A DNA stretch of 64,000 nt, taken from the NCBI GenBank assembly GCA_020633625.1, contig JACKDJ010000014.1:18035-82034 (forward strand), given 5' to 3'. Origin of the DNA: Myxococcales bacterium. Its GTDB lineage: Bacteria > Myxococcota_A > Bradymonadia > REDH01. Positions 1 through 33,628 of this stretch are shown here, one piece after another. Numbering within the stretch: the first letter of the stretch is position 1; every line of letters begins with the position of its first letter. The translations under genes and the position numbers were made by a program. The notes under the pieces are model-generated. The model worked only from the letters and a program-made list of their open reading frames with translations, searched no databases and had not been told where the DNA came from.

Positions 1-80
1 CGTCCGTGCTCGTGCCGGCCGAGAGCCGCCGCTGTTCGATCGCGGTGGCGCGCGTTCGCAAGATCTCCTCGCGGTGGACG
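1..80 (-). pseudogene. Downstream (C-terminal-ward) fragment of the IS-disrupted AlbA_2-domain gene; continues beyond the window start
   Basis: The reverse strand of 1-80, in the frame dictated by the upstream fragment, is open and protein-like (VHREEILRTRATAIEQRRLSAGTSTD). Confidence 0.45.
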
Positions 81-133
81 TGATCCTCATTTCCTGATCC
101 AGGTGCTACGGGAGGCCGACCCCGGAGCACACG

Positions 134-406
134 ATGAAGAAGAAGAAGTTCAGCGACGAGAAGATCCTGGCTCTCCTGGCCGAAGTCGAGGCAGGAGCGA
201 CGATCGTCGAGACGTGCCGGAAGCACGGCATCTCAGAGCCGACATTCCACCGCTGGAAGGCCGAGTTCGCCGGTCTGGACAAGGCCTCGCTGGCCCGGAA
301 GCGAGAGCTCGAGGAGGAGAACGCACGGCTGAAGAAGCTGCTCGCGGAGACTCTCCTGGCCAACGAGCTGCTCAAGGAGGCGAACGCAATGCTGGGAAAA
401 CTGTGA
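134..406 (+). CDS. IS3-family transposase OrfA (helix-turn-helix / leucine-zipper part)
   Basis: 90-aa product MKKKKFSDEKILALLAEVEAGATIVETCRKHGISEPTFHRWKAEF..., typical of IS3/IS911 OrfA. It ends just after the slippery heptamer G GGA AAA at 394-400. Confidence 0.85.
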   Translation: MKKKKFSDEKILALLAEVEAGATIVETCRKHGISEPTFHRWKAEFAGLDKASLARKRELEEENARLKKLLAETLLANELLKEANAMLGKL

Positions 407-1236
407 CGCCCGCGATTCGCCGTCGAATCGTGGGCGGGCTCACGGAGAGGCCGGGTGTGTCCGAGCGGGCCGCGTGCGCCGCGCTCGGCTGGAGCCGAAC
501 GTCGGTACGGTACCAGGCGGTGAAGCCGGCTGCGCACCCGGCCGAAGCAGTGATGTTGTCGGTAGCTCGCGAGCAGCCTGCCTGGGGCTATCGCCGCATC
601 CATGACGCCGTCCGAGGACGCGGCATCCGCGTCAGTCGTCGCCTGTTCCTGCAGCTCTACAACGAGCACCGGCTGGCCCATCGTCGGCGGAAGGCGGCGA
701 AGCGCGCACGGCGCTCCGGCAAGCCGCCGGAGCGACGCGCGACGCGTCCGAACGAGATCTGGGCGACGGACTTCATGAGTGACCAGCTGAAGACCGGGAT
801 GCGGATCCGCCTCCTCGTCGTGGTCGACGAGTACACCCGCGAGCTGCTCGCTCTGCGCGTAGCGCGGTCGTTCGCGGGGGCGGACGTCGCCAGGGTCCTG
901 GATGAGCTGACCAAGGAGCGCCGGGGGGCGCCCGAGTGTCTTCGTACCGACAACGGTGGCGAGTTCATCGGCGCAGATTTGACTCGCTGGCGCGAGCGCC
1001 ACAGCGTTGCGCCACTGCTGAGTCGGCCTGGGAAGCCTGTCGACAACGCGATCTGCGAGAGCACGAACGGCCGGATCCGCGCCGAGTTCCTCAACACGAC
1101 CGTCTTCACTGCCGTCCAGCACGCCGCCGAGGCGGCGGCGGAGTTCCGCTTCCACTACAACCACAAGCGACCCCACTCGTCCCTCAAGAACCAAACCCCG
1201 GCTGCGTTCGCGGCCAATCACCCGAACCTCTCATAG
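397..1236 (+). CDS. IS3-family transposase OrfB (DDE integrase core), expressed as an OrfAB fusion by a -1 frameshift at GGGAAAA (394-400)
   Basis: The frame starting at 103 gives ...WATDFMSDQL...LVVVDEYTRELL...DNGGEFIG...ESTNGRIRAEFL...HYNHKRPHSSL, an rve/DDE integrase with the conserved D, D, E and the C-terminal HSSL motif. The X XXY YYZ slippery site lies exactly where the two frames overlap. Confidence 0.85.
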   Translation, partial: KTVTPAIRRRIVGGLTERPGVSERAACAALGWSRTSVRYQAVKPAAHPAEAVMLSVAREQPAWGYRRIHDAVRGRGIRVSRRLFLQLYNEHRLAHRRRKAAKRARRSGKPPERRATRPNEIWATDFMSDQLKTGMRIRLLVVVDEYTRELLALRVARSFAGADVARVLDELTKERRGAPECLRTDNGGEFIGADLTRWRERHSVAPLLSRPGKPVDNAICESTNGRIRAEFLNTTVFTAVQHAAEAAAEFRFHYNHKRPHSSLKNQTPAAFAANHPNLS

Positions 1237-1745
1237 CGCCTGGTACCGGAAACAGGGACCACGTCCCGGTCGAGGTCTTCGAGGCGTACGCCCACTGCCG
1301 GCTGGTTCTCCCAGCGATGCCTGCTGTGGTTGCGGTCGAGGAGCAGTCGCGCGTACTCGTCCTGCGACATCACGGTGGTCGTCGAGCCGACGCGCTTGTA
1401 CGGCTTCGACTCAAAGACGAAGGGCGCGAACGGACGGGAGGGCAGAGCCTCGAGTACGAGGACCTGCCGGCCTTTGCGCACGTCGACCCGGCTCAGCTCG
1501 ACGCGCGCCGGCGGCTCGAACCGCCCGAGCATCGCGGCGACGTCGCGGAGCGTCATGTCGGCGACCTCCTGCCCGACGAGCTTCCCATCGGGGCTGACGC
1601 CAATCAACACCCGGCCACCCTCACCGTTGAGGAACGCGCAGAGCGTCTCGCCAGCGCGCTTCAGCTCCGCGGTCGAACGCTTGAGCTCGAGCGTCTCGGA
1701 CTCGCCCTGAGCGATGAGGGATTGGAGTGCGCTGAGGGTGGTCAC
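1218..1745 (-). pseudogene. AlbA_2 / Schlafen-like putative DNA-binding domain protein, N-terminal part, disrupted by the IS3 insertion
   Basis: N-terminus MTTLSALQSLIAQGESETLELKRS... matches the AlbA_2 (PF04326) 'ESETLEFK' signature. The ORF runs into the IS right end; its last 15 codons and stop are IS-derived. Removing the IS and one ACG copy restores an open in-frame continuation (…D|VHREEILRTRATAIEQRRLSAGTSTD…) through bases 80..1 of the window. Confidence 0.65.
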
Positions 1746-2237
1746 GGATCGCTCCGATACGTGTCGATAGGCCGTGGTCCACCTGCATCATCGGAACGTG
1801 TCAATGGACGTGAGACCACGGTCACTCGAAAATAGGGATCATCAGGGGGCAGGGCCGCTTTTCCAGCAGACTCTCCCCGACCTGCGAGGCAACGTCTACC
1901 TCTCGAGCGCTGGGCCCGACCTCGAAGATGTTGGCGCGTACCTCGGCAGCAACCTCATCATGCCGGACGGAGGACACAGCCACACTGGAGTCACCGGATC
2001 TGCGGGAAGGCACAAGCATGACATACGCGGGGCTCGCGTCCAGGAGAAGGGTGGTGTCGCGCTCGCCACGGGGACCCCGAGGAAGCCGCACGACCACGAC
2101 ATGCCAAGTACCGGTGAGCACGCACACTCGATCGGTCCAGAGGGCGCGCACACACACGGCACCGACAAGCGACCGCTGAGCTTCGTGCTGACGTTCATCA
2201 TCCGGGTCGCCTAGCCCAAGGCCGCGCGACCTGCCGC

Positions 2238-3026
2238 CTACCCCGGCGGTAGGTCGCGCGACCGCGCCGCATCGACTGCGACGAACCAGCCGGCTCGTCG
2301 CGCGTCCGCGAACTGCCGCTCCAGGCGCGCGGCGAAGTCGCGGTCGCGCAGCAGCACTCCTACCTCGACGTTCCGCTCGTTACCCCGCCGGGTGAAGTTC
2401 GCGGACGTCACGTAGGCACGCTCGCCATCCACGACGGCGCACTTGGCGTGCAGGCTCGCAAACACGCCGCCGTCCAACACCCGCCGATCGATCCAAATGT
2501 TCGGCCAGCGATCTCGCCAGGGCCAGTTCCCCCGCACGAAGTCACGAACCTGCGCGTCGACCTGGCTCGGCGTCACCCCTACCGGCCCGGATGGCGACGC
2601 CTGCGGCTGATTGATGTTGAGGTAGATATCGACCTGCACGCGGTGGGCGACCATCGCGTCATGCAGCGGTGCCAGATGGTCGGCGCCGCCGTCGAAGCTG
2701 TACCCGGCGAGCAAGACGCGCTCCCGAGCGGATCCAAGGACCTCGCGCAGGACGACGACGCTTCGGCGCGACTCCGCGACCGGAGCTTCCGGCCCGGTCC
2801 AGACCAGCTCCGGCGCGCACCCGGCGTGCGCCGCTCGCTCGGTCAGGATCGCTTCGACGACGGGAAGCCACGCCCCGTCTTCTATGCGCTGAAGGGCGTC
2901 GCGAATCGACGCTTGCTCGTCGTCGAGGCCGAGCGCTTCGAAGGCAGCCGACGTCAGGCCGCGCGAGTCCCTCAGCGCGACGGCCAGCCGACGAAGCGTC
3001 TCGGTTGAGAGGTCGTGGACGGTCAC
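2238..3026 (-). CDS. drmC: DISARM DrmC, phospholipase D-family (HKD) nuclease
   Basis: C-terminal HKD motif ...SLHAKCAVVDGERAYVTSANFTRRGNERNVEVG... Probable GTG start at 3026 overlaps the drmB stop (GTGA). The ORF-track extension to 4073 is drmB antisense or out-of-frame sequence. Last gene of the drmD-drmMI-drmA-drmB-drmC order. Confidence 0.8.
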   Translation of the reverse strand: MTVHDLSTETLRRLAVALRDSRGLTSAAFEALGLDDEQASIRDALQRIEDGAWLPVVEAILTERAAHAGCAPELVWTGPEAPVAESRRSVVVLREVLGSARERVLLAGYSFDGGADHLAPLHDAMVAHRVQVDIYLNINQPQASPSGPVGVTPSQVDAQVRDFVRGNWPWRDRWPNIWIDRRVLDGGVFASLHAKCAVVDGERAYVTSANFTRRGNERNVEVGVLLRDRDFAARLERQFADARRAGWFVAVDAARSRDLPPG

Positions 3027-4888
3027 AAGAGTGGCGGGGCGGCGAAGAACGCAGCTCTCGGGTCCGCCCCGATCGTCGGAACCACGAGGGCACGGTCCAG
3101 GTAGCGATTGAACCACTCGCAGGAGCACTCCGCCACATACAGGCAGCCGTGACACGCCGCGCCGTCCAACCACCGCTCCGAGCCGTCGGTCGGCTCGTGA
3201 CCGGCGCAGACCGGGTCGTTCGAGCACAGGGAGCCGAGCCGCAGTGCACGTTCGAGGTGGTCGGCGAGAAACCGGCCTTGCTCGACGAGTCCGCCGAGCG
3301 TGCCGTCGGTTCCGGGACTCCCGGTGCTCAACAAGAGCCCTGACATCGCTCCCGCCTCGTGGTCCGGCGGCGCGCAGTAGATCCGCTCGCGGATCGAGCT
3401 TGCGCTGTATCCGCACTCGAGAGACAGCGCGGTGATCAGCAGATGGGAGAGGCTGTGCAGCAGGTAAAACCTCGCTCCCGGGAACTCGCCCGCGCCGCCG
3501 GCGTGCCGGTGTGCCAGCCAGCCCTGGTAGAGCTTGGCCGCACGATCGCGCACCTCTTGCCGGGCCTCCCACTCCGCGAGCCGCTCGGGGTCGAGCTCGA
3601 TGAAGACTCCCTCGCCGCGGATCTCCGAGGCCGGGAGCCATGTCTGAGTTACCCCGATCGGCTGAATGCGGTCCTGGACCTCGTGTTCGCCCTGCAGTGT
3701 CGCGGCGGGCGGCTCGATCCGTGTGAACCCGACCAGCGCCCTGACCTCCCGGAGGTTGTGTGCGAGCACGACGCGCGAGATGCCCGTCCCGGCCGGTGGT
3801 GGGACGGCACGCGGAAAGAACGTGGCGTTGTCCGTCGGTGGACGCTCGCCCGGCAGCTCGAAGTCCGCGCGCACAAACTCGGAGTACTCGGCGTGACGAA
3901 GGGGCGGTGGCTCCGGCTTGTGCCCCCGCCGAACCTCGTCGACCACTCGCAGCACCGACGCGTCGTCGAACGAGCCGAGCGCATCGGCGATCGCCGGGAT
4001 CGTGCGAAACACGGGCAGGCTGTCCGGCGTCGCTGCCTGGAGGGTCGCCCAGCTCGCCCGCACCACGTCCCACAGGGACACGCTCGTGTCGGGAATCGAC
4101 AGCGCGCTCTCAACGACAGAGAAGTATGCGTTGCTCGCGGTCCGCACCAGCAGCCGCGTCCTCTCCGTGCATGACTCACCCTCGGCTCCGACGGGACCGA
4201 GCCACGGGCGTCTACCGCGACAGTGTGGATTCGCGCTCTCGTCGCCGCGGGCATCGATGAGCTGGCGCACCGCGCCGCAGCTTCGACACCGGATGCGAAT
4301 GGACGCGAAGTCGCCGCTGGGGCCTTCGTCGAAGACCAGACTCGGTGCCTTGCACGCCTGCTGGTCGGGGGTGCCGGTCTGGTGCACGAACCAGACCCAC
4401 GGAAACTCGTCGATATGCCCGTTTCGGCACGCCGACAGGAACCGAACGGGCACACACTCCGAGCCGCGTTTGGTGCAGTCGTGGACCCAGCGGTCGCGCT
4501 TGCGCGTCAGGCCGGCGGTCGCCCGTATCAGGGCGCGGCACTCCGTGTTCTGGCACACGAACCAATCAGGAAACTGCAGGGCGTCGATGCCCACGGACTT
4601 CCGCGGGGTCTGGTCGTCGCCGGCCGGCGGCGCGCGAAACGCGTCGGTGACGTCGAGTGGCCGGTCGTGAGACTTCAGTCGCCGCGCGAGGCGATTCGCG
4701 AGGCGTGGCTCGTCGATTCTATCCCACTCGCGCCCGACGCTGCGCCAGAAGTCCAGTCCGCTGATCATCACCGCGTCGTGGAGCAGGTCAACGAGGGCGC
4801 CGGGCCCGTACGTGGTTATCACCTGGCTCCGGCGGAGCTGCCCGTCGGGGCGGACGTACCCTGCGGCCGGTCGACTACGCGTCGCCAT
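3023..4888 (-). CDS. drmB: DISARM DrmB (DUF1998 family, Cys-cluster protein)
   Basis: MATRSRPAAGYVRPDGQLRRSQVITTYGPGALVD... N-terminus and the C-terminal Cys cluster CQNTECRALIRATAG...HDCTKRGSECVPVRFLSACRNGHIDEFPW are characteristic of DUF1998. Its start overlaps the drmA stop by 14 nt. Confidence 0.75.
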   Translation of the reverse strand: MATRSRPAAGYVRPDGQLRRSQVITTYGPGALVDLLHDAVMISGLDFWRSVGREWDRIDEPRLANRLARRLKSHDRPLDVTDAFRAPPAGDDQTPRKSVGIDALQFPDWFVCQNTECRALIRATAGLTRKRDRWVHDCTKRGSECVPVRFLSACRNGHIDEFPWVWFVHQTGTPDQQACKAPSLVFDEGPSGDFASIRIRCRSCGAVRQLIDARGDESANPHCRGRRPWLGPVGAEGESCTERTRLLVRTASNAYFSVVESALSIPDTSVSLWDVVRASWATLQAATPDSLPVFRTIPAIADALGSFDDASVLRVVDEVRRGHKPEPPPLRHAEYSEFVRADFELPGERPPTDNATFFPRAVPPPAGTGISRVVLAHNLREVRALVGFTRIEPPAATLQGEHEVQDRIQPIGVTQTWLPASEIRGEGVFIELDPERLAEWEARQEVRDRAAKLYQGWLAHRHAGGAGEFPGARFYLLHSLSHLLITALSLECGYSASSIRERIYCAPPDHEAGAMSGLLLSTGSPGTDGTLGGLVEQGRFLADHLERALRLGSLCSNDPVCAGHEPTDGSERWLDGAACHGCLYVAECSCEWFNRYLDRALVVPTIGADPRAAFFAAPPLL

Positions 4889-7800
4889 CTGCGACCTCCC
4901 TCTTGAGCTCGCGACGATAGACCCACACATGCACCGACGGCTCAACATCGCGCATCGACATCGGCGCGGTGAACGCGCGCTCGTCCGGGCTTCGATCGTC
5001 CGTCTCGTCGATGCCGGTGGACATGATCGGGCGACCCCGACCGTCGCGGTCGAGGACCGTGTATGTGCGCGTCGCGCCGCCTTCGACGGCCTCCCGCAGC
5101 AGCACCTCGAGCCTGTCGAGCAGGTTCTCGCCGCGCGCAACCACGGCCTTCCGCAGAAGGTCCGCGCCCTTCGCGTCGCCGGCCGCCGCGGCCCGATTCG
5201 CGACCGCAGTCAGCGCGCGCGCGGCGATGCGCGCGCGCGCCGCCGGAATTCGGTGCACCGCGCCCGCGGGCATCAGCTCGGCCTCCCCGTGCCGAATCAT
5301 CGCGATCAGCGCCCCCGCGAAGCCGCGCTGCAGTGCCGGCGCAGAGAACGGGGTGAGACTCGTCGGCTCGACGAACCGGTAGAACGACCTGTGAAACGCG
5401 ACGAAGCCCTCATAGTGCGAGCGGTCACGCGGTCGGTGCAGGTTGTAGCACGTCACCACCAAGCCCGGCCGATCGTCGCGCCGTCCCACGCGGCTCGACG
5501 CCTGAATGTACTCGCTGGTCGTCTTCGGCTGTCCGGCCACCACCATCAGGCCGAGACGGTCGATGTCGACGCCGACAGAGATCATGTTGCTCGCGAGAAC
5601 GACATCGACGTGCTCCTTCAGCGCGAAGCTCTTCTCTAGCCGCGCCTTCGTCGCCGCGATGCGAGCAGTGCTCTCGCGACTCGTCAGCTCGGCCGGCTCC
5701 GTCGCGAGGTCGCGGTCCGCAAACCACGGGTGCGCGCCCGTGTGTGCCTCTGGGACGCGACGCGACGCCGACGCGCAGCGCACGCGCGCTTCATCTTCGA
5801 CGAGCCGACGCATCCCGCCGAGCTCGCGGAGGCTGTTGAAGTAGCCCACGAGCGTCATGTAGGAGTCGGCCGGCTGGTCCTCGACGCCGGGAAGCCATTG
5901 CTTCTGTGCGCCGGCGAGCAGCGCCGAGTATGTCCGCAACAGGATGTTCTTCGTCGGCCGCCCCGCCGCCGCAACACCGGCATACAGGCGACCTGGCACC
6001 GCGCGATCCACGACCGAGAACCAGGTCTCGTTCTCGTCGATGCCCGGCGGCGGAAACACACGCAGGCGGTCCCGAGCAAACAGCGCGCGGACGTGGCGGT
6101 CGGCCCGCCGCACCGTCGCGGTCGACGCAAGGAGCTTGGGCCGCCGCGTTCGCCCATCTGGCGTGACGACCTGACAGAGGTGGTCGACCGCCGTCTCGTA
6201 CAGCCCGACCATGGTGCCGAGCGGCCCGGAGATCAGGTGGAGCTCGTCTTGGACGATCAGCTCCGGCGGCTGGAGCCTGTCTGGAAGCGACACCGCGCCG
6301 TCGCGCACGGCCTCGGTCGCGGTGCCAAAGAACCTGCCCCCACTCCGCGCCGTCACACGCCCAAACAACATCCCGGCCTGCGCGCGGTATGGCAGCAGCG
6401 CGAACTTGTCGACCGTGCCGATCAAGAAGCTCGGCAGCTCGCGGTAGATCTGCTCGTCGACGTACACGACCGGCAGGCCGTCGGCGTGACGTGCGTCCGA
6501 GAAGTCGCAGCGGTGGTTCGAGCAGCTCAGCACGAGCCGCTCCGGAGCGCTCGTGCTCGGGAGCAAGCGGAAGCTCTGCGCGTTGAACGCGCTCCCGCAC
6601 CAAGGGCACGCCGGCAGCGGGCACGGAAGCTCGGCTCCCCGGTTGTTCTTGTAGTCGGTGACCTGGCGAGCGAGCGCCGCGAGCGTGTTCGCGGTCGCGC
6701 TCGTCCCAACCCAGAGGCCGATGCCGAAGCGAACGTCGCCCAGCGTCGACGGAGCCTCGCGGCGCTGCTTCTCGAGCGCACAGACGAGCGTGGCAGCCCG
6801 CCCGAGCTGATCGAGCGTCAGAAGACGCAGCGTGTAGCGTAGGATCACGGTCACGCCGAGACCCGCGTCTGGTCTCCCGTGACCTCGCAGTCGGCGCAGC
6901 ACCAGCGCGAACGCGATGACGCCGAGGTATGCCTCCGTCTTACCACCGCCCGTCGGGAAGAAGATCAGCTCGACGGCAGCCCGATCCGCGTGCGCGTCGT
7001 CGGTCACACCCACGACGTTCAGGAGGACGAACGCGAGCTGGAACAGGCGCCACCGCGGCTCCGCGCCGCCGGCGTACCGCTCGGGGCTGCGAGCGCGCGC
7101 AGCATCGGCCATCGCGCGGTTCGCGAGCTGGAACGCGCGCCGCGCGACCGCGTCCGTCGCCAGGACCTCGATCCCCCGCTCGATTCGGGTCGCCGCCTCC
7201 GAGGCATCCGCCAGGAGCTGCTCTCGCGTCTCCCGTCGACGCTCGCCGTCGAGCGGGACGAGGTGCTGCTCCGCCACCCAGCGCCGGTACCCCTCGACGA
7301 TCGGTCCAAGACTGGCGCGGAGCTCGGCCGGATCGTCCAACAGCGAGAGGCGGCTCATCCGCACCTCGACGCCGGCGACCTCGCGCGCCACCACTCGTGG
7401 CACCTCCGCAACCGGGATCCAACGCGTCTGCACCACCGTCCCGTCGATCACACCCTCGGCGACGACCGTCTCGACCGCGACACCGTGCCCCGTCGCATAC
7501 TCGCGGACATCGCGGAACTGCAGATCCGCGACCCGCGCGTCGACCTCGTCGATCTGGGCGTCTCGCGGGTTTGGACGCACGACGAACGGTGACGCGGCGC
7601 GGACGACAAGCCCCACCTGGAACGCGTAGCCAGCGTCCCGCGCGCCCTCGGGGGCGCTCGCCCGTCGGTTGACCAGAAACAGCGCGACGGCGCGCGTGCC
7701 AGGCGGGACCCCGGCCCGAGGGCTGTCGACCGGCTGAATGCTCCCCTCGATCACGAGCCCGTCGCTGTCGGGGACCGCGACCCCGAGCGCAAGGGACCTC

Positions 7801-8351
7801 GCGTCGAGAGCGACCGTGACCGTCTCGCTCCGCGCGGGCCGCCGCTGCCACAGCACTCGGCGCGACGGCGCCGCGGTCACGGGTGCGCCGGCCGCGCGCG
7901 CCGTCATCGCCGCCTCGTCGATACGCTCGTAGTCTGCCCACCGGGCGGTGATCTCGACCGAGGCGAGTCCGTCGGGGACCAGGAGCGACATGCCGATCGA
8001 GGCGGGGACGAACCGACGGCGCTTGGGCTCGGGGTCAGCGTCGTGCGCGTCTTCTGACGCCACGTCATCGCCGGCGCCCTCTTGCTCGTCCTCGTCGGGG
8101 GAGTCCAGCTCGCGGTCTTCCTCTGGGGCGATGAAACCGGTGAGGTACCAGCGCGAAGGCGACATCTCGAGCACCTCGCGCTCGCGCGAAGGGTCGAAGG
8201 GTCCGACCAGATCGGCTTCGAGCGTGCGGACCAGGTGGTCCCGAACGGCGACGGCTGGGGTCACTGGCTCTCCCGAGGTTCGACGTCTGCGGAGCGTGCC
8301 CGATCCGCGCCGACAAGTGAAGCGCGACGGCTGACCGCGGAGGCGGATCAA
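4875..8351 (-). CDS. drmA: DISARM DrmA (DEAD/DEAH-box superfamily 2 helicase); start uncertain (ORF track gives a TTG at 8351; an ATG lies near 8165)
   Basis: Walker A FFPTGGGKTEAYLGVIAFAL, DExH-type motif IVQDELHLISGP, and helicase C-terminal motifs LASNMISVGVDIDRLGLMVV and QASSRVGRR. Position between drmMI and drmB. Confidence 0.75.
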   Translation of the reverse strand: MIRLRGQPSRFTCRRGSGTLRRRRTSGEPVTPAVAVRDHLVRTLEADLVGPFDPSREREVLEMSPSRWYLTGFIAPEEDRELDSPDEDEQEGAGDDVASEDAHDADPEPKRRRFVPASIGMSLLVPDGLASVEITARWADYERIDEAAMTARAAGAPVTAAPSRRVLWQRRPARSETVTVALDARSLALGVAVPDSDGLVIEGSIQPVDSPRAGVPPGTRAVALFLVNRRASAPEGARDAGYAFQVGLVVRAASPFVVRPNPRDAQIDEVDARVADLQFRDVREYATGHGVAVETVVAEGVIDGTVVQTRWIPVAEVPRVVAREVAGVEVRMSRLSLLDDPAELRASLGPIVEGYRRWVAEQHLVPLDGERRRETREQLLADASEAATRIERGIEVLATDAVARRAFQLANRAMADAARARSPERYAGGAEPRWRLFQLAFVLLNVVGVTDDAHADRAAVELIFFPTGGGKTEAYLGVIAFALVLRRLRGHGRPDAGLGVTVILRYTLRLLTLDQLGRAATLVCALEKQRREAPSTLGDVRFGIGLWVGTSATANTLAALARQVTDYKNNRGAELPCPLPACPWCGSAFNAQSFRLLPSTSAPERLVLSCSNHRCDFSDARHADGLPVVYVDEQIYRELPSFLIGTVDKFALLPYRAQAGMLFGRVTARSGGRFFGTATEAVRDGAVSLPDRLQPPELIVQDELHLISGPLGTMVGLYETAVDHLCQVVTPDGRTRRPKLLASTATVRRADRHVRALFARDRLRVFPPPGIDENETWFSVVDRAVPGRLYAGVAAAGRPTKNILLRTYSALLAGAQKQWLPGVEDQPADSYMTLVGYFNSLRELGGMRRLVEDEARVRCASASRRVPEAHTGAHPWFADRDLATEPAELTSRESTARIAATKARLEKSFALKEHVDVVLASNMISVGVDIDRLGLMVVAGQPKTTSEYIQASSRVGRRDDRPGLVVTCYNLHRPRDRSHYEGFVAFHRSFYRFVEPTSLTPFSAPALQRGFAGALIAMIRHGEAELMPAGAVHRIPAARARIAARALTAVANRAAAAGDAKGADLLRKAVVARGENLLDRLEVLLREAVEGGATRTYTVLDRDGRGRPIMSTGIDETDDRSPDERAFTAPMSMRDVEPSVHVWVYRRELKREVADGDA

Positions 8352-8413
8352 CCGGATCGATGGGCGCTTGACGCGGCCCTCGTGGCGATGCAGCTAGTGT
8401 CGCTCCAATCCAC

Positions 8414-9346
8414 GTGCAGAGGAACGAGATGGCCCGGGTGCTCTCCTGTCTGATGGCGATAGCGCTGCTCGCAGGCTGCGGCGGTGACGACGGCTACCCT
8501 CTCTACGACCCGACCTACTCCGGTGGCGGACAGACGACGTCTTGTGGCACCAACGCGCACGACGACGGCTTCGGAACCTGCGTGTGCGTCACCGGCTACG
8601 ACTGGTGTTCTGAGGACCTCTCGGACACCAACTGCTGCGCGCCCGCAGCGGAGACGTACGGCGAGATCATCGTCAGCTACCAGGGCGCAGACGACGAAGG
8701 CCTCCAGTCCATCGAGGACCGCCTGCGACCGCGCGGCCTGTTCGAAGCCGTCGCGAGCAGCTACACGAACGCGCTCGCCTTCCCCGAGGACCTGTACCTG
8801 ATGGGCGGCGAGTGCGGCTTCGTCAACGCGTTGTACACACGAGCGAACGGTAGCGCCGCCGTCCTGATGTGCTACGACCTGTACGCGTTCATCCTGAACA
8901 CGTTCGCGACGCGCTTCGAGGCGGCCGACGCCCAGATTCTCGCTGACCACACGTGGGCGTTCGTTCTCCTCCATGAGCTCGGGCACGCCCTGATCGACAT
9001 CTTCGACCTTCCGGTCGTAGCGGCCGAGGAGGACGCGGCGGACTCGTTCTCGGTCGTCAACCTGGTAGCAATGGGCCGCGCGGACGCCGCGGAGAGCGCC
9101 GCGGCCTTCTGGTTCCTGGCCGACGACCACCAGGATCTCCCCGAGGAGCTGGCCGACGAGCACTCGCTGAACCGGCAGCGCTTCTACGACATCCTCTGCC
9201 TCGTCTACGGCTCCGACCCGACGACATACGCGTCGATGGGCACGCAGTTCCCGGACATGGCCGGGCGGCTCCCGCGCTGCGAGGACGAGTGGGAGAGCGC
9301 GCGCACGAGTTGGAACGAGCTCCTGGCGCCACACGCCCGGCCATAG
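8414..9346 (+). CDS. Lipoprotein with an HExxH zinc-metallopeptidase-like motif (resembles DUF4344 'putative metallopeptidase'), encoded on the opposite strand inside the DISARM operon
   Basis: Lipoprotein signal MARVLSCLMAIALLAGCGG, motif LLHELGHALIDIF, normal codon bias. The antisense 340-aa ORF (8348..9370) is Arg-rich shadow. Convergent with drmMI (20-bp gap), divergent from drmA. Confidence 0.65.
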   Translation: MQRNEMARVLSCLMAIALLAGCGGDDGYPLYDPTYSGGGQTTSCGTNAHDDGFGTCVCVTGYDWCSEDLSDTNCCAPAAETYGEIIVSYQGADDEGLQSIEDRLRPRGLFEAVASSYTNALAFPEDLYLMGGECGFVNALYTRANGSAAVLMCYDLYAFILNTFATRFEAADAQILADHTWAFVLLHELGHALIDIFDLPVVAAEEDAADSFSVVNLVAMGRADAAESAAAFWFLADDHQDLPEELADEHSLNRQRFYDILCLVYGSDPTTYASMGTQFPDMAGRLPRCEDEWESARTSWNELLAPHARP

Positions 9347-9366
9347 TCGCCGATCCCGACGCTTGT

Positions 9367-12300
9367 TCAACTCTTGTCCGAGTCGTCACCAAAGAGGTCT
9401 GGCTGACCATACACGGGGCCGCGTGGGCCGGCGGGGGTGCCCGCCCCTGCTTCCCGCTCCTCGGCGGCTCGCGCGGCGTTGAGCGCAAACAGCCGGTCGA
9501 TGATCTCGCCTTCGAAGCGCCGCTTCGCGTCCGCCTCGCCTGGGCTCGCGGGATCCTGGAAGGCCGGCGGCTCCAAGTCGCTCCAGCCGTACGCCGCCAG
9601 CACCACGCGATCCATCTGCTCGTGCAGCTCACGCAGGTGGACGATCTCGGCGTCGTCGCACGCCGGATCGCGGAGCCGGTTGTACGTCGTCGTCAGTCCA
9701 ACGTCCGTCGCCACCATGTAGCTGGCGCGCGCCGCGTACAGGGCATCGCCCGCCTGCTCGACCTCCGAGCCGGCCGCGAGCGTGTGCGGGGCAGGGAACG
9801 GGAAGTTCTCGAAGCAATCAGTGGCGGAGTATCGAAGATCAGACTTCATGGACGACGACAGCGTCCAGGACCATCTGACATGCACGCTGGACTGTAGGAC
9901 TGCGAACTCCGCGGTGCCTGAAAGCGGGAACACGAAGAGCTGTTCCGAGAATACGCGATCCGTCGACTGGAACGAGAACATGCAGTGCTTGCTGACGCGC
10001 GCTGTCACAAGACATCGTGAGAGCTTCGTGAGCGCACGGTAGAGCTCCACCCGCTTCTCACCAAACTGCCACCAGAGGCGACGATAGATGTCGCGATTGT
10101 TCCGATCGCGCTCCGGCTTCGCCAGCTCGCGCACCCGCCCGATCAGGTCCGGCCACTGCTCCGCCTCTTCGAGCGTCATCTGGCCGAAGTTGATGACGTA
10201 GCGCTCGAAGTCCTGGGTCGGCGACGAATTGACCTCCTGGCCCCCGATGTACGGGAAGATCCGCTCGGCGTTGCGTGGGTCGCGCGCGCCGAGCTCGTCG
10301 CGCTCCTCCGGCGTCAGCGTGAAGCCCATCCCCAAGACGATGCTGCCCTGGAAGCTCTTCCCCGCGTTTGCACGCAGCGCGACCGGGTCCGGCCGCTCGG
10401 GTCGTGGCGCCAGCCGGCTGTTCAGGGCGGCCACGGCGAGCCCGTTGAGCCGCAGCTCCCCGACGTGCGACCGACACTCTCCGCGGGCGAGGTGGACCGT
10501 GCTGATCGTGACGCCGGCCTCTCCGGGCCACGGCATGGAGTCGACGGCGTCGTAGAGGACCGCGCCGTCACCGACGATCCGCTGCAGTCCCGTCGCGCGC
10601 GTGTCGCCCTGACCGATCGTGTTCGTCGCGATCAGCCCCGCCGTGCCGTGCTCGCCGAGGTAGTGCGCGGCGCGAAGGAAGAAGTGCGCCGAGAGGTCCG
10701 CGTTCCCGTGGGCGCCGGGGTGCACGGCCTGCAGCCACTCGATGTAGTGTGGGCCGCCCGAGGCCGCGATGTTGTTCTTGCCACCGAACGGCGGGTTCCC
10801 AACGAAACAATCGAACCATGCGGCCTTGCCCAACCGGCCGCTCGCCAGCGGGTCCGGTCGCTCGCCGGCGAACACCTCTGGGAACTCCAGCATCCAGTGA
10901 AGCGGCGTGAGCTGCGCTCGCGCCTCGGCCTGCCACAGGTGAAGCTGGGCCGTCGGCGACTCGCGGCTGGCGAGCCAGTCGAGCACTTCCCCGCGCCGGT
11001 TCTGGAGCGCGGCCTTGCGCTCCTGGCGGCGCTCGACCGCGAAGAACGCTCCGACGACGACGTCGGCGAGCAGTCGCGCGCGCTCCATCGCGTCGTCGGC
11101 GTCGCGCAGCAGCCACACCTTACGCTGGGCGTCGACCGCGGAGCGGCTCTGGGCGAGGTCGAGAATCTCCCGGCGCAGCCGCAGCGCGCGCTCGATCGCT
11201 TCGTTGAGCTCGCGCTGGACGATCAGCTGCTGCTTTCCCCCTTCCCACGAAAGGGCCTGGATCTGGTTGATGTCGAGTCCCACCAGCGCGTCGCCATGTC
11301 GCAGCGCGTGGTCGACGAACGTGAACGGCTGGTCTGCCGCGAGCGTGACGAGCCACATCGACAGCTTGGCAAGATCGACGGCGAACCGATTCTTGTCGAC
11401 ACCATACAAGCACCGCTGCGCGACGAGCCGGCGGGCGTGCAAGACGGGGTCCCCGTGCTCGTCGCCGACCTGCTCGACGACGCCTTCGCGGGTCCACGCG
11501 GCGACGACCTCGTCTGCGAGGACGCGGCAGGTCTCGACGAGGAACGCGCCCGACCCCATCGCGGGATCGCAGATCTTGAGCGCCAGCAGCGACTCCGCCG
11601 TCCGCTCCGGGCCCATCGTCGCAAACAGCGGCTCGAGGGCACGCCGCACCATCCTCGAAGAGAGGGACCGCGGGGTGTAGTGCGAGCTCGTCCGACGCCG
11701 CTCCGTCCCGGGCTGCAGCACCAGGCGGTTCTCTTCGCGCCGCTTCGTGCCGCTGCGCCTCTCGGCCTCGAGCGCAGCGAGGCGCTCGGCGTCATCCTCG
11801 GCGGCGCCCCAAGCAGCGGCCAGCGCGGTCGCTCGCGCAGACGACAGCCCCGCCTCCTCTCGCAGCCATGCCACACGCTGAGCTGACGGCACCGACGCGA
11901 GCGCGTCGACGGTGACCCAAACGCCATAGTCCCGCAGACAGACCGCGGCGGCGTCGAGCCGCGCCACATGGTAGCCCATCAGGCGTTCATACACGCTCCC
12001 AATCTGCTCAACGTCGAGAGCCTGATAGCTCAGGCGCTGCCCATCGAGAATGAGCAGCCGACGCAGCACGCCATAGACGGTGGCGTCGTGGATGGCAGGG
12101 GTCCGAACGGTCGCACGCTCCTCGGGCAGCCGCGGCGCGGGCTCGCCGACACGGCGCCCCTCGAGGAACGGAAAGAGCTCGGGATCAAACAACATCCCGT
12201 GTCGCGGAGGCGTCCGCAGATCTCCGAACGTCATCCCGTGGTAGACGGCCCTGAAGAGGGCGAGCAGCCGCGGCCAGGCCCCGAACCGCTCGTGCATCGT

Positions 12301-13311
12301 ATCGGCGTGCGTCGCTGCATCCTCGTGCAGCTGTTCCCACAGCCCCAGGACGCCGAGGTGCGTGCCGTACAGGGGGGCATCGACCGGCATCAAGCCGCGA
12401 TCCTCGGCGTAGAGCAGAAAGACCAGGCGCAACAGCACGGTGAGCAGCGCCCGGTAGACGTGGTCGTCGTCGACCTCGAGTGCAGCGCTCAGCGCTCCGC
12501 CGTCGCCCCGCTCTTCGCACTCTTCGAAGCCGGCCAGCAGCAGCTCGATGGCCTCGAAGACCTGCCGAGCGAGCTCCGCGGTGACGTCGGCTTGCCGGCG
12601 TCGACTGTCGCGCAGGATCGCGTGGAGATCCCGATCGGGAGATGTGAAGACCGTCTGCGCAGAGAGGAGCGAGAGCAAGCCGCCGAAGATGTCTTGGCCG
12701 CCGGGTCCCGCCATGTCGCGGATGCCGAACGTGATCGCGCCCGAGGCCTCTCCGTGGGGGGCCACGACGAGACGGAGCACGTCACCGTTGAACAGCAGCC
12801 CCACCGGGACCTGAACGTGACGGAGCAGTCGCTCGAACTTCGCCGCCGGAGGGTAGTGCCACTCACCAGTGGTCGTCTCGGGGCGGTCCAGGTCGAGCCC
12901 GGAGGGGAGCTCCCACGCGAGCCACACGTACCCGCGGCCGGCGCCCGGCGACGCCGCCTCGCGCTCCAGCTCCGCGGTGTCGGGCGGCGCGACCCGGCGG
13001 AGCGCCCGCGTGGGACGCAGGTGCTGCCGCCCCTCGGGCACCCACAGCGACAGCTCGTCGGGGAGCACCCCGTCGAAGTCGAAGTCGCCCTCTTCGTAGC
13101 CGAGAATCTCGAGCAGCGGGGTCAGGCTTGGGAGCCGCTGGGCGCCGCTTTGGCCGTCGATGAGCGCAGACCGCAGCGCAGCGTGCTCCACGCGAGTCGC
13201 GGGACGGGCACACTGCGCGTCGACCAGGGCCGGGACCGAGACGACGAGCCCCTGAATCGGCTGGACCATGCCGAGCCAGGTTTCGTGAAACCGCCGGTCG
13301 ATGTGACTCAC
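9367..13311 (-). CDS. drmMI: DISARM DrmMI, large N6-adenine DNA methyltransferase
   Basis: Catalytic motif IV NPPF in ...FDCFVGNPPFGGKNNI..., AdoMet-binding region LYGVDKNRFAVDLAKLSMWLV, 1314 aa. Start overlaps the drmD stop by 4 bp. Confidence 0.8.
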   Translation of the reverse strand: MSHIDRRFHETWLGMVQPIQGLVVSVPALVDAQCARPATRVEHAALRSALIDGQSGAQRLPSLTPLLEILGYEEGDFDFDGVLPDELSLWVPEGRQHLRPTRALRRVAPPDTAELEREAASPGAGRGYVWLAWELPSGLDLDRPETTTGEWHYPPAAKFERLLRHVQVPVGLLFNGDVLRLVVAPHGEASGAITFGIRDMAGPGGQDIFGGLLSLLSAQTVFTSPDRDLHAILRDSRRRQADVTAELARQVFEAIELLLAGFEECEERGDGGALSAALEVDDDHVYRALLTVLLRLVFLLYAEDRGLMPVDAPLYGTHLGVLGLWEQLHEDAATHADTMHERFGAWPRLLALFRAVYHGMTFGDLRTPPRHGMLFDPELFPFLEGRRVGEPAPRLPEERATVRTPAIHDATVYGVLRRLLILDGQRLSYQALDVEQIGSVYERLMGYHVARLDAAAVCLRDYGVWVTVDALASVPSAQRVAWLREEAGLSSARATALAAAWGAAEDDAERLAALEAERRSGTKRREENRLVLQPGTERRRTSSHYTPRSLSSRMVRRALEPLFATMGPERTAESLLALKICDPAMGSGAFLVETCRVLADEVVAAWTREGVVEQVGDEHGDPVLHARRLVAQRCLYGVDKNRFAVDLAKLSMWLVTLAADQPFTFVDHALRHGDALVGLDINQIQALSWEGGKQQLIVQRELNEAIERALRLRREILDLAQSRSAVDAQRKVWLLRDADDAMERARLLADVVVGAFFAVERRQERKAALQNRRGEVLDWLASRESPTAQLHLWQAEARAQLTPLHWMLEFPEVFAGERPDPLASGRLGKAAWFDCFVGNPPFGGKNNIAASGGPHYIEWLQAVHPGAHGNADLSAHFFLRAAHYLGEHGTAGLIATNTIGQGDTRATGLQRIVGDGAVLYDAVDSMPWPGEAGVTISTVHLARGECRSHVGELRLNGLAVAALNSRLAPRPERPDPVALRANAGKSFQGSIVLGMGFTLTPEERDELGARDPRNAERIFPYIGGQEVNSSPTQDFERYVINFGQMTLEEAEQWPDLIGRVRELAKPERDRNNRDIYRRLWWQFGEKRVELYRALTKLSRCLVTARVSKHCMFSFQSTDRVFSEQLFVFPLSGTAEFAVLQSSVHVRWSWTLSSSMKSDLRYSATDCFENFPFPAPHTLAAGSEVEQAGDALYAARASYMVATDVGLTTTYNRLRDPACDDAEIVHLRELHEQMDRVVLAAYGWSDLEPPAFQDPASPGEADAKRRFEGEIIDRLFALNAARAAEEREAGAGTPAGPRGPVYGQPDLFGDDSDKS

Positions 13312-16300
13312 GACCGTGTCTCCGGCCAGAGGTAGAGGAGGCCGATCGGCTCGAGCCGGCGGGCTTGGACGTCGTAGAGGGCCCGCAGCTGGCTCGGCTC
13401 CTCGGAGCGCTCGCGCTCGATGTCACGCGACCGCTTCTCCATGTGGTCACGGTCGAGCTCGAGCTGTCGCCGCTGGATGCGGTCCTCGGGCGCAACGCTA
13501 TCGAAGTCGATCGTCAGCTGCGCGACCAGCCCGCGGAGGCGAGTCTGCTGTCTGTCGAGGAGTGCACGCAGATCGCTTGCCTCCTGCTCGCCCCGCGCGC
13601 GCAGCTTTACGACGGCGTCACGCGCGTTCGCCTCGGCCTCGTCGCGCACATGCGGCCAGAGGGTCGCGAAGTCCGCGCCGGCGACGGCCGCGACACGCGC
13701 ACACACGCTCGCGGGGGTCACGAGCCGATCGAACCGGTCGCGGTACGCGTCGTCGAACAGCGAGATCAGCTCGGCTTCGTGCGCAGGCGACACGGGCTCG
13801 AGGTGTGGCGGCTCGCGCGACTCGAGCCAGGGCGCGGCCACGCACACGAGCTCCTCGTGCAGACGCGAAGAGCCGCGGCCAAACAGCGACAGTCGCCCAA
13901 AAGCGAGTACGTGCGGCGTCGACAGTCGGGGTACGCGGGCGACCGCTACCCTGTGGAGCTCATCACCGGCCCAGCCGTGCGCCAGAAAGCGCGACAGTAC
14001 CCGTTGCGCGAGCGGGTGTGCGAGGTGAAGCTGGACCACATCCGCCCGCAGCCGACCGGCCGGCTCGAAGCTGACGGGCAGTGGCGCTCGCTTTCGGTGC
14101 TCCCACAGAGGCTCATCGCGACCACGAGGGGGGCGCGCAGAGTCGAGGGTCGCCTGCCAACCGTTTGGAAACTGCGGGAGCTGCCAGAGTCCGTCGCCGA
14201 GCGAGGCGAGGGGCGAGGTCCCGAGGGGCCTCTGGAGTGCGACGTTCATCCCGGTCTCGATCACCTTGTGAAAGAGGCCGGCGTCGTGGCCCAGCTGGCG
14301 TCGCGATCGGTCGAGCGTTCGGGCGGCGAGGTCGAGGTCTCGGCCCAGCGCAGCGGCGGCCCGCTGCGTCTCTAGCTCGGACGAGACGGCGCCGCGCCGC
14401 GCGCGCGCGCGAGCGTCTATCTCTTCGAGCCGGCCGATGGACGACTCGCGGATCCCGTCTGCGAGCTCGGCGGCGATGTCGTCCATGATCACTGCGCCGA
14501 GCGAGCCGAGCTCGCGCTGGATCACGTCGACCTTTCGGACGAGCGCGGCGAGCACGCGGTCCTCGGCACGCTGCGGGTAGACGAAGTAGTGACAGAACAC
14601 CTCTGCCGCGGGCTGAAGCGCCCGGTCGATGCGGCCGTTCCGCTGCTCCATCCGAGCGGGATTCCAGGGGATGTCGAAGTGGAACAGGGTCGCGCAGGCG
14701 CCCTGCAGGTTCACGCCCTCGCGCGCGGCGTCCGTACAGAGGAGGATTCGCAGGGGGCTCTCGGATGGCGCCGAATTGAACGCGCGCTGGACCTTGTCGC
14801 GGGCGTCGTCCGACATGCCGCCGTGAAAGACGCCGATGCGCTGGTCGGCGTCGGCGGTGTGAGCGACGGCACCCGAGAGCTGGGTTCGAAGGTAGCGGAG
14901 CGTGTCGCCGTACTCGGTGAACACGAGCAGCCGAGTCTCCGACCACGTCGCGTCTGCTCCACAACCGGCGTCGAGCGCGACCGCGGGGCACTGGTGCCGG
15001 CGGATCCAGTCGAACAGGAGCCGTAGCTTCGCGTCAGGCCTGCTCCGCAGGCGGTCGGCGGCGGCCACGAGCTCTTTGAGCAGCTCTGCGGGCACCGTCG
15101 TCGGGTCCAGCCCCATGCTCGCGCTCGCCGCTTCGTCGGCCTCCTCACGGTCGAGCGCGTCGTCGGACTGCCCGTACGCTTCGAGATCGAGATCGAGCGA
15201 GGCTTGGGCGAGGCCCGAGCTGGACTGTGCCGGTCGGTCCTCGAGCGACTCCCGACGCAGGGCTCTCGCGTGCGCCGCGAGCGTTCGAGCGAAGGCCTCG
15301 ACGGACGACAGGAGGCGCTTCTGAAGGTTCACGAAGACCAGGCGCGCGCGGCCGCTGGTTGGCTCGACAGCCTGGCTGTAGGTGCGGAGGAGGGCCGCGA
15401 GCGTGAGCTCGTCGCCCTCGACTCCGCCGAGCTCGACCTCCGTTGCGGAGTCGCCGTCGATAGTGGTCGCGGCTCGCCAGCCGGTGGGATCGTGGCGCAG
15501 CCGATGCTCGACGATCCGACGCTGCGGGAACTCCTCGCCCAGCTTGCGCAGGTCTTCCTTGAGCCGCCGAACCATCACAGGCTCGAGCTGGCGGGCATCG
15601 TCGACTGGCACACCGCGAGTGAAGCGCTGCGGATCCATGATCTCGAGCAGAGCGGAGAAGCTGTTCGAGTGTCCGTTGTGCGGTGTCGCGGAGAGAAAGA
15701 GCCGGTTCTCGAACTTGGGTGCGACCTCGCGCACGACGCCTGTGAGCTGGCTGTCGACTGCGTACTCCGACGCGGTGCTCGGCGCCGCGTGGTGCGCCTC
15801 GTCGAGGATCAGCAGGCTCCGGGCCCGGCGTTCGCCGAGCTGTTGGAGCAGGGGGTCGCGGTGCTCGGGCCGCCTCAGCATCGGGTAAGAGACGATGAAC
15901 CGGGAGTGCGTGGACCACGGGTTCACCGCGAAGCCGCGCTCCTTTCGCCGCTCCGAGACGAACGCGCGGGTGTAGATCTCGAAGCGCTGTCCGAACCGTC
16001 GCTCGAGCTCGTCGCGCCACTGGAGGGTGACCGACGCTGGGCAGACCACCAGCGTGAAGTCGACGCGCTGGCGGAGCGTGAGCTCCTGGAGCACGAGCCC
16101 CGCCTCGATCGTCTTCCCCAGCCCCACATCGTCGGCAATGAAGAGATTGGCTCGCGGCAGGCGCAGCGCCTTGGCGAGCGGGGTGAGCTGGTGGCTGAGC
16201 AGCTTGATCCCGGCACGGAACGGCGCCTGGAACAGGCCGGCGTCGGTAGCCGTGACCGCGTTCCACCGAAGCGCGTAGTACCAAGCCGCGAAGAGGCGAG

Positions 16301-16847
16301 GGTCATCGGTCCCTCTCACGGCGCCGATCCCGTCGGCGTGCTGACGAAGGACCCGCGCGCCAAGCTCGAGCTCCCAGAGGACCTCGAGGGGCCGGCCCTG
16401 GTCGTCATCGTCGAGGCACGTCAGCGAGACCCGGGTCATGTCGTCGCCTGCGGCGCCGGCCTCCACGTCCACGACGAGGTACTGTCGTTGTCGGCACACG
16501 ACGAGGTCGCCGGGTTGCGGCAGCCCGTTGTCGGGGACGGCGGGCGCTGCCCGAAGGCGGGCGAGGTCGGCGTCCAAGTCGGCCGCCGCGAGGATCCGCT
16601 CGACGAGGTCGACGAGGGCACGCCCGCTGTCGGGCAGGCCATGCGCGCGGCACGCGGCGCGGAGCTCGTCGCGCGTGAGCTCGTGCAAGACCTCGTACAT
16701 CTGCCCGCGCACGTCGTGCGCGAACCGCCGCGCCTGCTCGGCCTTCGCGAGGGAGCTGGGCACGACGGCGCCGAACTCGCGCGCCACCTCTGCGATGCGA
16801 GCTTGAGTCAGCGTCTCGACGACGGTCTGTACGGTAGGCGCGAGCAT
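13308..16847 (-). CDS. drmD: DISARM DrmD, SNF2-family helicase
   Basis: SNF2 N-terminal motifs LLSHQLTPL...LFIADDVGLGKTIEAGLVLQEL...LVVCPASVTLQWRDEL, DExH box LLILDEAHHA, helicase-C domain. Start taken at MLAPTVQTV... (ATG 16847). The further upstream ORF-track extension is Arg/Pro-rich and implausible. Confidence 0.85.
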   Translation of the reverse strand: MLAPTVQTVVETLTQARIAEVAREFGAVVPSSLAKAEQARRFAHDVRGQMYEVLHELTRDELRAACRAHGLPDSGRALVDLVERILAAADLDADLARLRAAPAVPDNGLPQPGDLVVCRQRQYLVVDVEAGAAGDDMTRVSLTCLDDDDQGRPLEVLWELELGARVLRQHADGIGAVRGTDDPRLFAAWYYALRWNAVTATDAGLFQAPFRAGIKLLSHQLTPLAKALRLPRANLFIADDVGLGKTIEAGLVLQELTLRQRVDFTLVVCPASVTLQWRDELERRFGQRFEIYTRAFVSERRKERGFAVNPWSTHSRFIVSYPMLRRPEHRDPLLQQLGERRARSLLILDEAHHAAPSTASEYAVDSQLTGVVREVAPKFENRLFLSATPHNGHSNSFSALLEIMDPQRFTRGVPVDDARQLEPVMVRRLKEDLRKLGEEFPQRRIVEHRLRHDPTGWRAATTIDGDSATEVELGGVEGDELTLAALLRTYSQAVEPTSGRARLVFVNLQKRLLSSVEAFARTLAAHARALRRESLEDRPAQSSSGLAQASLDLDLEAYGQSDDALDREEADEAASASMGLDPTTVPAELLKELVAAADRLRSRPDAKLRLLFDWIRRHQCPAVALDAGCGADATWSETRLLVFTEYGDTLRYLRTQLSGAVAHTADADQRIGVFHGGMSDDARDKVQRAFNSAPSESPLRILLCTDAAREGVNLQGACATLFHFDIPWNPARMEQRNGRIDRALQPAAEVFCHYFVYPQRAEDRVLAALVRKVDVIQRELGSLGAVIMDDIAAELADGIRESSIGRLEEIDARARARRGAVSSELETQRAAAALGRDLDLAARTLDRSRRQLGHDAGLFHKVIETGMNVALQRPLGTSPLASLGDGLWQLPQFPNGWQATLDSARPPRGRDEPLWEHRKRAPLPVSFEPAGRLRADVVQLHLAHPLAQRVLSRFLAHGWAGDELHRVAVARVPRLSTPHVLAFGRLSLFGRGSSRLHEELVCVAAPWLESREPPHLEPVSPAHEAELISLFDDAYRDRFDRLVTPASVCARVAAVAGADFATLWPHVRDEAEANARDAVVKLRARGEQEASDLRALLDRQQTRLRGLVAQLTIDFDSVAPEDRIQRRQLELDRDHMEKRSRDIERERSEEPSQLRALYDVQARRLEPIGLLYLWPETRS

Positions 16848-17458: not shown

Positions 17459-17925
17459 GCGCGCTTTGCAGAATCTGCGGACGCGCGCTTTGCAGAATTG
17501 CTAGCCCGCAGCTTGCGAATCCGCTGAGCGCAGCTTTGCAGAGCTGCGATGCGAATCTTGCAGAATCTCTAGTTCGCGTTTCCCGAATCCGCTGAGCGCA
17601 GCTTTGCAGAGCCGCTGACGCGCACTTTGCGGAATCTCTAGTTCGCGTTTTACGAATCCGCTGAGCGTAGCTTTGCAGAGCTGCTGATGCGCACTTTGCG
17701 GAATCTCTAGCCCGCGTTTCGCGAATCCGCTGAGCGCAGCTTTGCAGAGCTGCTGACGCGCACTTTGCGGAATCTCTAGCCCGCGTTTTGCGAACCCGCT
17801 GAACGCAGCTTGGCAGAGCTGCCGATGCGTACTTTGCGGAATCTCTAGCCCGCGTTTTACGAATCCGCTGAGCGCAGCTTGGTAGAGCCGCCGATGGGCG
17901 TTCCGCACGCTCGCGAATCCGCGCA
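17459..17925. repeat. Degenerate tandem array of about 7 copies of a 69-bp unit, non-coding
   Basis: Unit (gcg)cactttgcggaatctctagcccgcgttttgcgaatccgctgagcgcagctttgcagagctgctgac recurs at 17551, 17621, 17690, 17759 and 17828, with more degenerate copies from ~17459. Each unit contains a ~34-bp sub-repeat (…cgcactttgcggaatc… / …cgcagctttgcagagc…). There are no unique spacers, so this is not CRISPR. Overlapping ORF calls (17391..17987, 17501..17926) are low-complexity artefacts. Confidence 0.8.
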
Positions 17926-33429: not shown

Positions 33430-33628
33430 GCAGAGACTCGACACGTAGGGGGATGGAGCACCCGGCGTCTTAGCCCGCTCTCGGGCCCGAATCAACGCGG
33501 GATTTGGGGGCCCGACGGCGGCTCCCGAGCGGCGACGCGCGCGTTGACGCCGAGCCCTGCGTCGCCCTAAGCCTACCGACCGACGCCGAGACAGTCGGCG
33601 CACTCGCTGCCCCGAGCCCCCGCGCCCC

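Follow-up and report, generated by a model that had tools for sequence, protein, structure and literature searches.

A complete class 1 DISARM locus of an uncultured Myxococcales bacterium is split by a gene on the opposite strand. The locus lies in a stretch of 64,000 nt (contig JACKDJ010000014.1, positions 18,035–82,034), which is called the window here. Its five intact genes occupy 2238–16847 of the window, all on the minus strand, in the order drmD-drmMI-drmA-drmB-drmC. Between drmMI and drmA lies a plus-strand gene (8429–9346) for a predicted lipoprotein of the DUF4344 family, which contains an HExxH zinc-peptidase motif. In related loci, the boundary between drmMI and drmA is the main site of extra DNA, and the DISARM of this clade behaves as two modules. 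A split at this boundary is the common state in the clade, not an anomaly. The DUF4344 gene is probably a passenger, or at most a cargo gene acting independently, at a hotspot for insertions between the modules.

The drmMI–drmA junction in related loci

Searching the GTDB species representatives with aligned DrmA homologues gave eighty related loci (L009–L088), mostly from Myxococcota; window DrmA as a single query gave no match against the genome contigs. The DrmA proteins of these loci are 48–56% identical to that of the window. The loci were compared by tblastn with six window proteins, and the gaps were corrected for unaligned termini. Gaps longer than 1 kb are seen between drmMI and drmA in 33 of 49 loci (1.3–9.4 kb; median gap 2.2 kb). 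Such gaps are present in 3/28 loci between drmD and drmMI, in 0/76 between drmA and drmB, and in 0/67 between drmB and drmC. A previous interpretation made from the window alone (the sequence-only reading) took direct adjacency of drmMI and drmA as the canonical arrangement. This premise does not hold here, since drmMI and drmA are direct neighbours in only 15 of the 49 loci. Within Myxococcaceae, loci with cargo at the junction are interspersed among loci where the two genes adjoin. In L082 and L085 the module order is permuted, with drmABC followed by drmD-drmMI, which supports the two-module architecture. The junction of the window is 1,102 bp long and holds one opposite-strand gene.

The cargo at the junction is diverse and mostly defence-like. 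By approximate counts, the Pfam domains are Peptidase_M78/IrrE with a helix-turn-helix (7), AAA_21/AAA_15 (5), PIN (3), GmrSD_N/C (2), ThsB_TIR (2), ThiF (2), Abi_C (2) and Fic (2), together with subtilases, kinases and PLD. PADLOC matches are to capP (7), RmrA (6), Septu PtuA (5; best E = 7e-132), AriA, HEC-01A and AbiLi. Judged from these matches, the junction is mainly a dock for other defence modules.

Cargo on the strand opposite to the drm genes is frequent. It accounts for 42 of 131 crude open reading frame (ORF) calls, and 16 of 32 loci have an opposite-strand ORF adjoining drmA. Several long examples are confirmed by Pfam: a Peptidase_M78 gene (L010), an Abi_C gene that is 88 nt divergent from drmA (L036), a DUF2326/CTD10 gene of ABC-3C systems (L069), and a P-loop/STAND NTPase gene (L029). 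The drmABC block is therefore commonly set apart from drmD-drmMI in the clade, presumably with its own promoter.

One further locus carries a lipoprotein gene at the position and in the orientation of the window gene. This gene (L086:5739–6623, minus strand) lies after a Septu-like pair and is divergent from drmA by ~170 nt. It encodes a Cys-rich lipoprotein of 294 aa with the lipobox LTGAG-C and has no Pfam match. It was considered as a hidden relative of DUF4344, and was rejected as unrelated at an hhalign probability of 0.2%.

DUF4344 itself is an unusual occupant. It is found at the drmMI–drmA junction in none of the 49 assessable related loci and between any drm genes in none of the 80 retrieved loci. 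The sequence-only reading had proposed such a comparison, and its view of the gene depended on the ORF being coding and on the position not being commonly held by this family. The gene is real, as described below, and the 49 junctions show no recurrence. The conserved co-occurrence with drm genes expected of a DISARM accessory gene was likewise not seen at these junctions. Conversely, drm genes are present in 0 of 80 metagenomic DUF4344 loci. Only one of the 80 DISARM loci has DUF4344 near drm genes, and there it flanks the system and is not embedded. In this locus (L041:9133–10050, plus strand; metagenome-assembled genome (MAG) HK-STAS-MYXO-49, from the same sludge study as the window), the DUF4344 lipoprotein gene lies 1.3 kb downstream of drmB. 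Its product matches the Pfam model at E = 8.7e-60 and shows 39% identity to the window protein over the aligned region. No drmC is detectable in this DISARM locus.

The embedded gene and its arrangement in the window

Class 1 DISARM reportedly consists of drmD, drmMI, drmA, drmB and drmC. In the window, the genes for the DrmA/DrmB/DrmC core are adjacent, and DrmD and DrmMI are present; protection against phages and methylation of host DNA are its predicted functions. The modification-side module begins with drmD (13308–16847, minus strand), which encodes an SNF2-type helicase (PADLOC DrmD PDLC02621, E = 6.8e-292; Pfam SNF2-rel_dom and Helicase_C). Its start, ATG 16847, was picked by reading the sequence. 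The second gene of this module, drmMI (9367–13311, minus strand), encodes an MmeI-like N6-adenine methyltransferase (PADLOC DrmMI PDLC02643, E = 0, 1220 bits; Pfam MmeI_TRD, MmeI_Mtase, Eco57I and N6_Mtase). The core module comprises three minus-strand genes: drmA (4875–8264) for a YprA-like helicase (PADLOC DrmA PDLC02575, E = 2.4e-250; Pfam Helicase_C), drmB (3023–4888) for a DUF1998/MZB protein (PADLOC DrmB, E = 3.3e-77; Pfam MZB), and drmC (2238–3026) for a PLD nuclease (PADLOC DrmC, E = 8.9e-55; Pfam PLDc_2). The start of drmA, GTG 8264, agrees with the N-termini of 19 DrmA homologues. Both modules are tight, and the genes within each overlap or abut: drmMI overlaps the drmD stop by 4 nt, drmC overlaps the drmB stop by 4 nt, and the drmB start lies over the drmA stop.

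The DUF4344 gene separates the two modules physically. The sequence-only reading had described it as lying on the opposite strand, convergent with drmMI and divergent from drmA, and all of this is borne out. The DUF4344 stop (9344–9346) and the drmMI stop (9367–9369) are 20 nt apart (spacer 9347–9366, read from the sequence). The starts of drmA and DUF4344 are separated by a divergent intergenic region of 164 nt (8265–8428), which is presumed to hold both promoters. The left boundary assigned to the region by the sequence-only reading, 8166, is about 250 nt too far left and falls about 100 nt inside the N-terminal coding region of drmA.

The plus-strand ORF spans 8414–9346 and has the 310 codons reported before if it is counted from GTG 8414. 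The likely start is ATG 8429, which is preceded by the Shine-Dalgarno-like AGAGGA and gives a product of 305 aa. NCBI annotates exactly this protein in a Myxococcales MAG (P0001). As the sequence-only reading had suggested, a Pfam check assigns it to DUF4344: PF14247, a "putative metallopeptidase", is matched over model positions 1–220 of 220 (E = 1.6e-51; 175.7 bits against a cut-off of 29.6). VLLHELGHAL is at residues 179–188, with HELGH at 182–186. The N-terminus read directly from the translation is MARVLSCLMAIALLAG followed by Cys, with the lipobox LLAG-C. It has the positively charged N-terminal region, the hydrophobic core and the lipobox ([LVI][ASTG][GA]C) of a lipoprotein, and processing is predicted on this basis. 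The GC content at third codon positions (GC3) is 0.89 in this frame, and the codon usage is host-like, equal to that of the neighbour genes. The HExxH lipoprotein gene is real.

A minus-strand ORF of 340 codons (8348–9370) covers the same DNA and was considered as a real gene co-oriented with the drm genes. It shares 4 nt with the drmMI stop at one end and 4 nt with the extended drmA ORF at the other, mimicking translational coupling. It was rejected as a shadow ORF because of its codon-position GC (GC1/2/3 = 0.86/0.49/0.65), its composition rich in Val (17%) and Arg (15%), and the Pfam match of the plus frame.

The arrangement is unlikely to have arisen in assembly. Matches to the window are found in two NCBI MAG contigs of the same sludge study and in one Logan contig. 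The Logan contig (L007), an independent assembly of run SRR12358675, corresponds to window 6433–9787 at 100% identity; it extends from drmA to drmMI and covers both DUF4344 junctions. The sibling MAG contig JACKDH010000026.1 (L006) corresponds to window 1–9353, from drmC to DUF4344, also at 100% identity. Both stand against a chimeric join in the metagenome-assembled genome, as do the intactness of all genes and their uniform codon usage. In favour of such a join, sibling contigs break in this region. JACKDH010000026.1 ends at window 9353, 7 nt past the DUF4344 stop and inside the 20-nt spacer, and JACKDI010000013.1 (L008), from the same population, ends at window 7041, inside drmA. Strain-level variation at the junction, or low coverage there, may explain these breaks. 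No record was returned for the exact DrmMI sequence of the window. Weighed together, a chimeric join is extremely improbable.

Signals of regulation or mobility are scarce around the gene. No consensus match to a sigma-70-like promoter is found at the locus, including 8265–8428, and an Rfam scan including this region gives no match. The convergent 20-nt spacer contains no terminator-like site, and folding of 9290–9430 is no better than that of shuffled sequences (z = -0.34 and +0.56). No element conserved across 74 loci is found upstream of drmA by a k-mer search. The DUF4344 gene is not flanked by direct or inverted repeats that would suggest a mobile-element boundary. A promoter of its own for drmABC, as the sequence-only reading proposed, is a reasonable inference from the geometry. 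The same geometry is the basis of its suggestion that the gene may interfere with transcription of drmD-drmMI.

This geometry could also be read as regulation. The DUF4344 gene would then be a functional accessory or regulator of the window DISARM, either by convergent and divergent transcription that tunes the ratio of drmMI to drmABC, or through a protein that signals envelope damage to DISARM. Two features fit this idea: the stops converge at a distance of 20 nt without a detectable terminator, and the divergent region of 164 nt is shared. Against it, the association is conserved in 0/80 related loci, and the product is a predicted exported lipoprotein, while Drm proteins act on cytoplasmic DNA. 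Moreover, unrelated genes in either orientation are found at the same position in other loci; such geometry therefore belongs to the junction and is not peculiar to the DUF4344 gene. An accessory or regulatory role is very unlikely. The sequence-only reading had named a passenger insertion and a regulatory or accessory component side by side. Of these, the passenger is favoured and the regulatory or accessory component is not, because the product is predicted to be exported and the family has no link to DISARM elsewhere.

The DUF4344 family and the role of the gene

Among the scored candidates listed, 701 homologues have E ≤ 1e-5. The nearest homologues among the matches listed reach only 50–54% identity, and their contigs are short and carry no drm genes. 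Across 47 aligned members, the family motifs HExxH, EED..D, DEH and QR are seen. The residues H182/E183/H186, E201/D202/D205, H245 and Q250/R251 are invariant in these members and present in the window protein, and four Cys (C129/C148/C257/C284) are invariant as well. Members of the family generally start with a signal- or lipoprotein-type N-terminus. The signal-type N-termini and the four invariant Cys point to a disulfide-bonded extracytoplasmic enzyme. The window protein resembles Pfam DUF4344 in its full-length match, in all invariant residues and in its N-terminal export signal. It differs from most members, together with its two nearest homologues, in an extra Cys-rich N-terminal linker at residues ~39–70.

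An AlphaFold2 model of the protein has a mean pLDDT of 82, with a core above 90 and 188 residues at 90 or above. A Foldseek search of this model against PDB and BFVD gives no significant match, and the resemblance of the fold to the zincins Wss1/SprT, IrrE and meprin is weak and non-significant; metallopeptidase activity is putative. An HMM search of PDB sequences gives no DUF4344 match, and no solved structure of a member was found. The sole functional hint found in the literature is that DUF4344 is an effector domain in substrates of the bacteria-killing type IV secretion system (T4SS) of Xanthomonadales (Sgro et al. 2019, PMC6536674).

The wider DUF4344 family is not defence-linked. In 25 long metagenomic DUF4344 loci, the 140 nearest ORFs are of housekeeping type (SmpB, leucyl aminopeptidase Peptidase_M17, succinyl-CoA ligase, thioesterases and DinB) with conserved synteny. 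A strong PADLOC match is seen in only 1 of these 140 neighbours, and it is to the kinase-type PD-T4-6 models. No homologue was found in IMG/VR viral contigs, and a plasmid search found only distant homologues (<32% identity) on large replicons.

From the facts above, the following scenario can be drawn. The class 1 DISARM of the window has two modules and a single hypervariable junction, and the DUF4344 gene is most likely a passenger lodged there that plays no part in the DISARM mechanism. Its product would leave the cytoplasm through Sec, receive its lipid at Cys17 and stay anchored in the envelope, where it would act on an extracytoplasmic substrate as a zinc hydrolase stabilised by disulfides. 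Such a location would separate it from the cytoplasmic DNA-sensing DrmAB machinery. The 164-nt divergent region would supply one promoter for the DUF4344 gene and another for drmABC, and drmD-drmMI would have a transcript of its own that converges on the cargo gene and stops 20 nt short of it. Cargo is probably exchanged at the junction through recombination between the conserved drm genes on either side, since the DUF4344 gene is not bordered by repeats, target-site duplications or mobile-element ends.

Several observations weigh against a plain passenger. That the gene is packed so closely (20 nt and 164 nt) between intact neighbours indicates that the arrangement is tolerated, and is also compatible with selection for linkage. 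The 106 plausible ORFs at the junctions were called by a crude GC3-based filter, and the cargo counts are approximate. Within the close, presumably Myxococcota-type clade of DUF4344, 3 of 8 contexts are defence-linked, in a small sample without a control: the window (inside DISARM), L041 (beside drmB) and L089 (with GmrSD). The clade contexts are suggestive of a link to defence. The remaining ones are a gene beside a Phd/YefM antitoxin gene (L003), two metabolic contexts (L091 and L173), and two that are uninformative (L001 and L002). At L089:7467–10816, the DUF4344 homologue P0007 (~40% identical) is divergent from a GmrSD type IV restriction gene, and it is also next to a protein of 1,699 aa with an nSTAND1-kinase-WD40 architecture.

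Speculatively, the DUF4344 lipoprotein gene could itself serve in biological conflict, and selection could be what keeps it in the DISARM junction. Its product might be an anti-phage factor of the envelope, such as a surface or periplasmic protease acting against receptors or phage proteins, or a hydrolase for antibacterial action or predation. DISARM and the lipoprotein could then act at different layers and be inherited together. The dominance of defence genes at the junction in relatives is consistent with this idea, and embedding has predicted new defences in other cases (Payne et al. 2024, bioRxiv 10.1101/2024.01.29.577857). The three defence-linked contexts of the clade, the fourth one beside the antitoxin gene, and the effector domain of the Xanthomonadales T4SS substrates are in line with it. 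The window is also a defence island: upstream of drmD are plus-strand genes for a GmrSD_N/NsnA-like protein (18140–19174; PADLOC NsnA, 3.4e-27) and an ABC-type ATPase with a match to HEC-02A (19885–20907; E = 1.3e-116). However, the wider family has housekeeping neighbours with a single strong, kinase-type PADLOC match among 140, and no other of the 80 retrieved DISARM loci has DUF4344 in its junction. Viral homologues were not found in IMG/VR, two members of the clade itself are in ordinary metabolic contexts, and 3/8 is a small uncontrolled sample. Retention by selection as a conflict gene is unlikely, although less so than an accessory role.

A broader version would regard the Myxococcota-type DUF4344 lipoproteins in general as an unrecognised envelope-acting factor of anti-phage or antibacterial conflict, which travels with defence islands, and the junction as a strand-indifferent cargo dock. 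This is unlikely. If it were true, it would be a rare case of an extracytoplasmic protease being recruited to the cargo junction of a DNA-targeting defence system, and the occupants of the Myxococcota drmMI–drmA junction could be mined for defence genes.

Other features are present around the DISARM locus. Just downstream of drmC are a Schlafen/AlbA_2 gene (1218–1745, minus strand) and an rve-type (IS3-like) transposase ORF (103–1236, plus strand), and the sibling contig JACKDH010000026.1 carries a HATPase_c_4/Fic-like_C gene just past the transposase genes. The lower-GC stretch between drmD and the next upstream gene contains 6.2 tandem copies of a 69-bp unit (17459–17888; 87% matches). Farther away, the product of an ORF of 3,566 codons (23017–33717, minus strand) is a highly repetitive secreted protein, in which many Ig-like repeats in tandem are followed by a Gly/Asp-rich tail, and a small lipoprotein with (GEGS)n repeats is encoded near it at 22181–22843.

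Comparison with known systems

Genes embedded as cargo are known from other defence systems, such as PrrC in type I restriction-modification (RM) loci and BrxU in BREX. The drmMI–drmA junction resembles the cargo hotspots of defence islands and type I RM loci, since the position is fixed and the cargo differs, and since the other DISARM junctions are closed. It differs from the known hotspots in that its position and occupancy (33/49) are measured only here, in a mostly Myxococcota clade and with crude gene calls.

With all five genes intact and co-oriented in the order D-MI-A-B-C, and with strong PADLOC matches, the window locus is a typical class 1 DISARM. The DISARM locus of Serratia sp. 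SCBI is called an operon by its authors (Aparicio-Maldonado et al. 2021; Bravo et al. 2022). In the window, by contrast, a gene on the opposite strand breaks the locus between drmMI and drmA, and the locus therefore cannot be a single transcription unit. The bias of the junction supports a DISARM of two modules, a modification side (drmD-drmMI) and a core (drmABC).

Genes embedded in defence systems, including DISARM, have already been described under the term "guilt-by-embedding" (Payne, Hughes, Fineran, Jackson 2024, bioRxiv 10.1101/2024.01.29.577857). In that work, 96.7% of the embedded genes share the orientation of the host system, and many of them are defence systems. The window gene is similar to these cases in that it lies between the genes of a complete DISARM, and relatives hold known defence systems at the same junction. 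It is dissimilar in three respects. Its orientation is opposite to that of the host system. Its product is a predicted exported lipoprotein of a family with housekeeping neighbourhoods, and not a cytoplasmic protein of nuclease, ATPase or NTPase type. Recurrent embedding of DUF4344 was not found in the 80 DISARM loci. As one more gene embedded in a defence system, it is a modest finding by itself, the phenomenon being already published. An atypical occupant of this kind, predicted to be exported, from a housekeeping-type family and on the opposite strand, implies either that guilt-by-embedding has false-positive or edge cases, or that it flags an envelope-level function. The bias towards the drmMI–drmA boundary also shows where a search for new defence genes could be directed. 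The measurement of this junction agrees with the published picture of embedding and does not overturn it.

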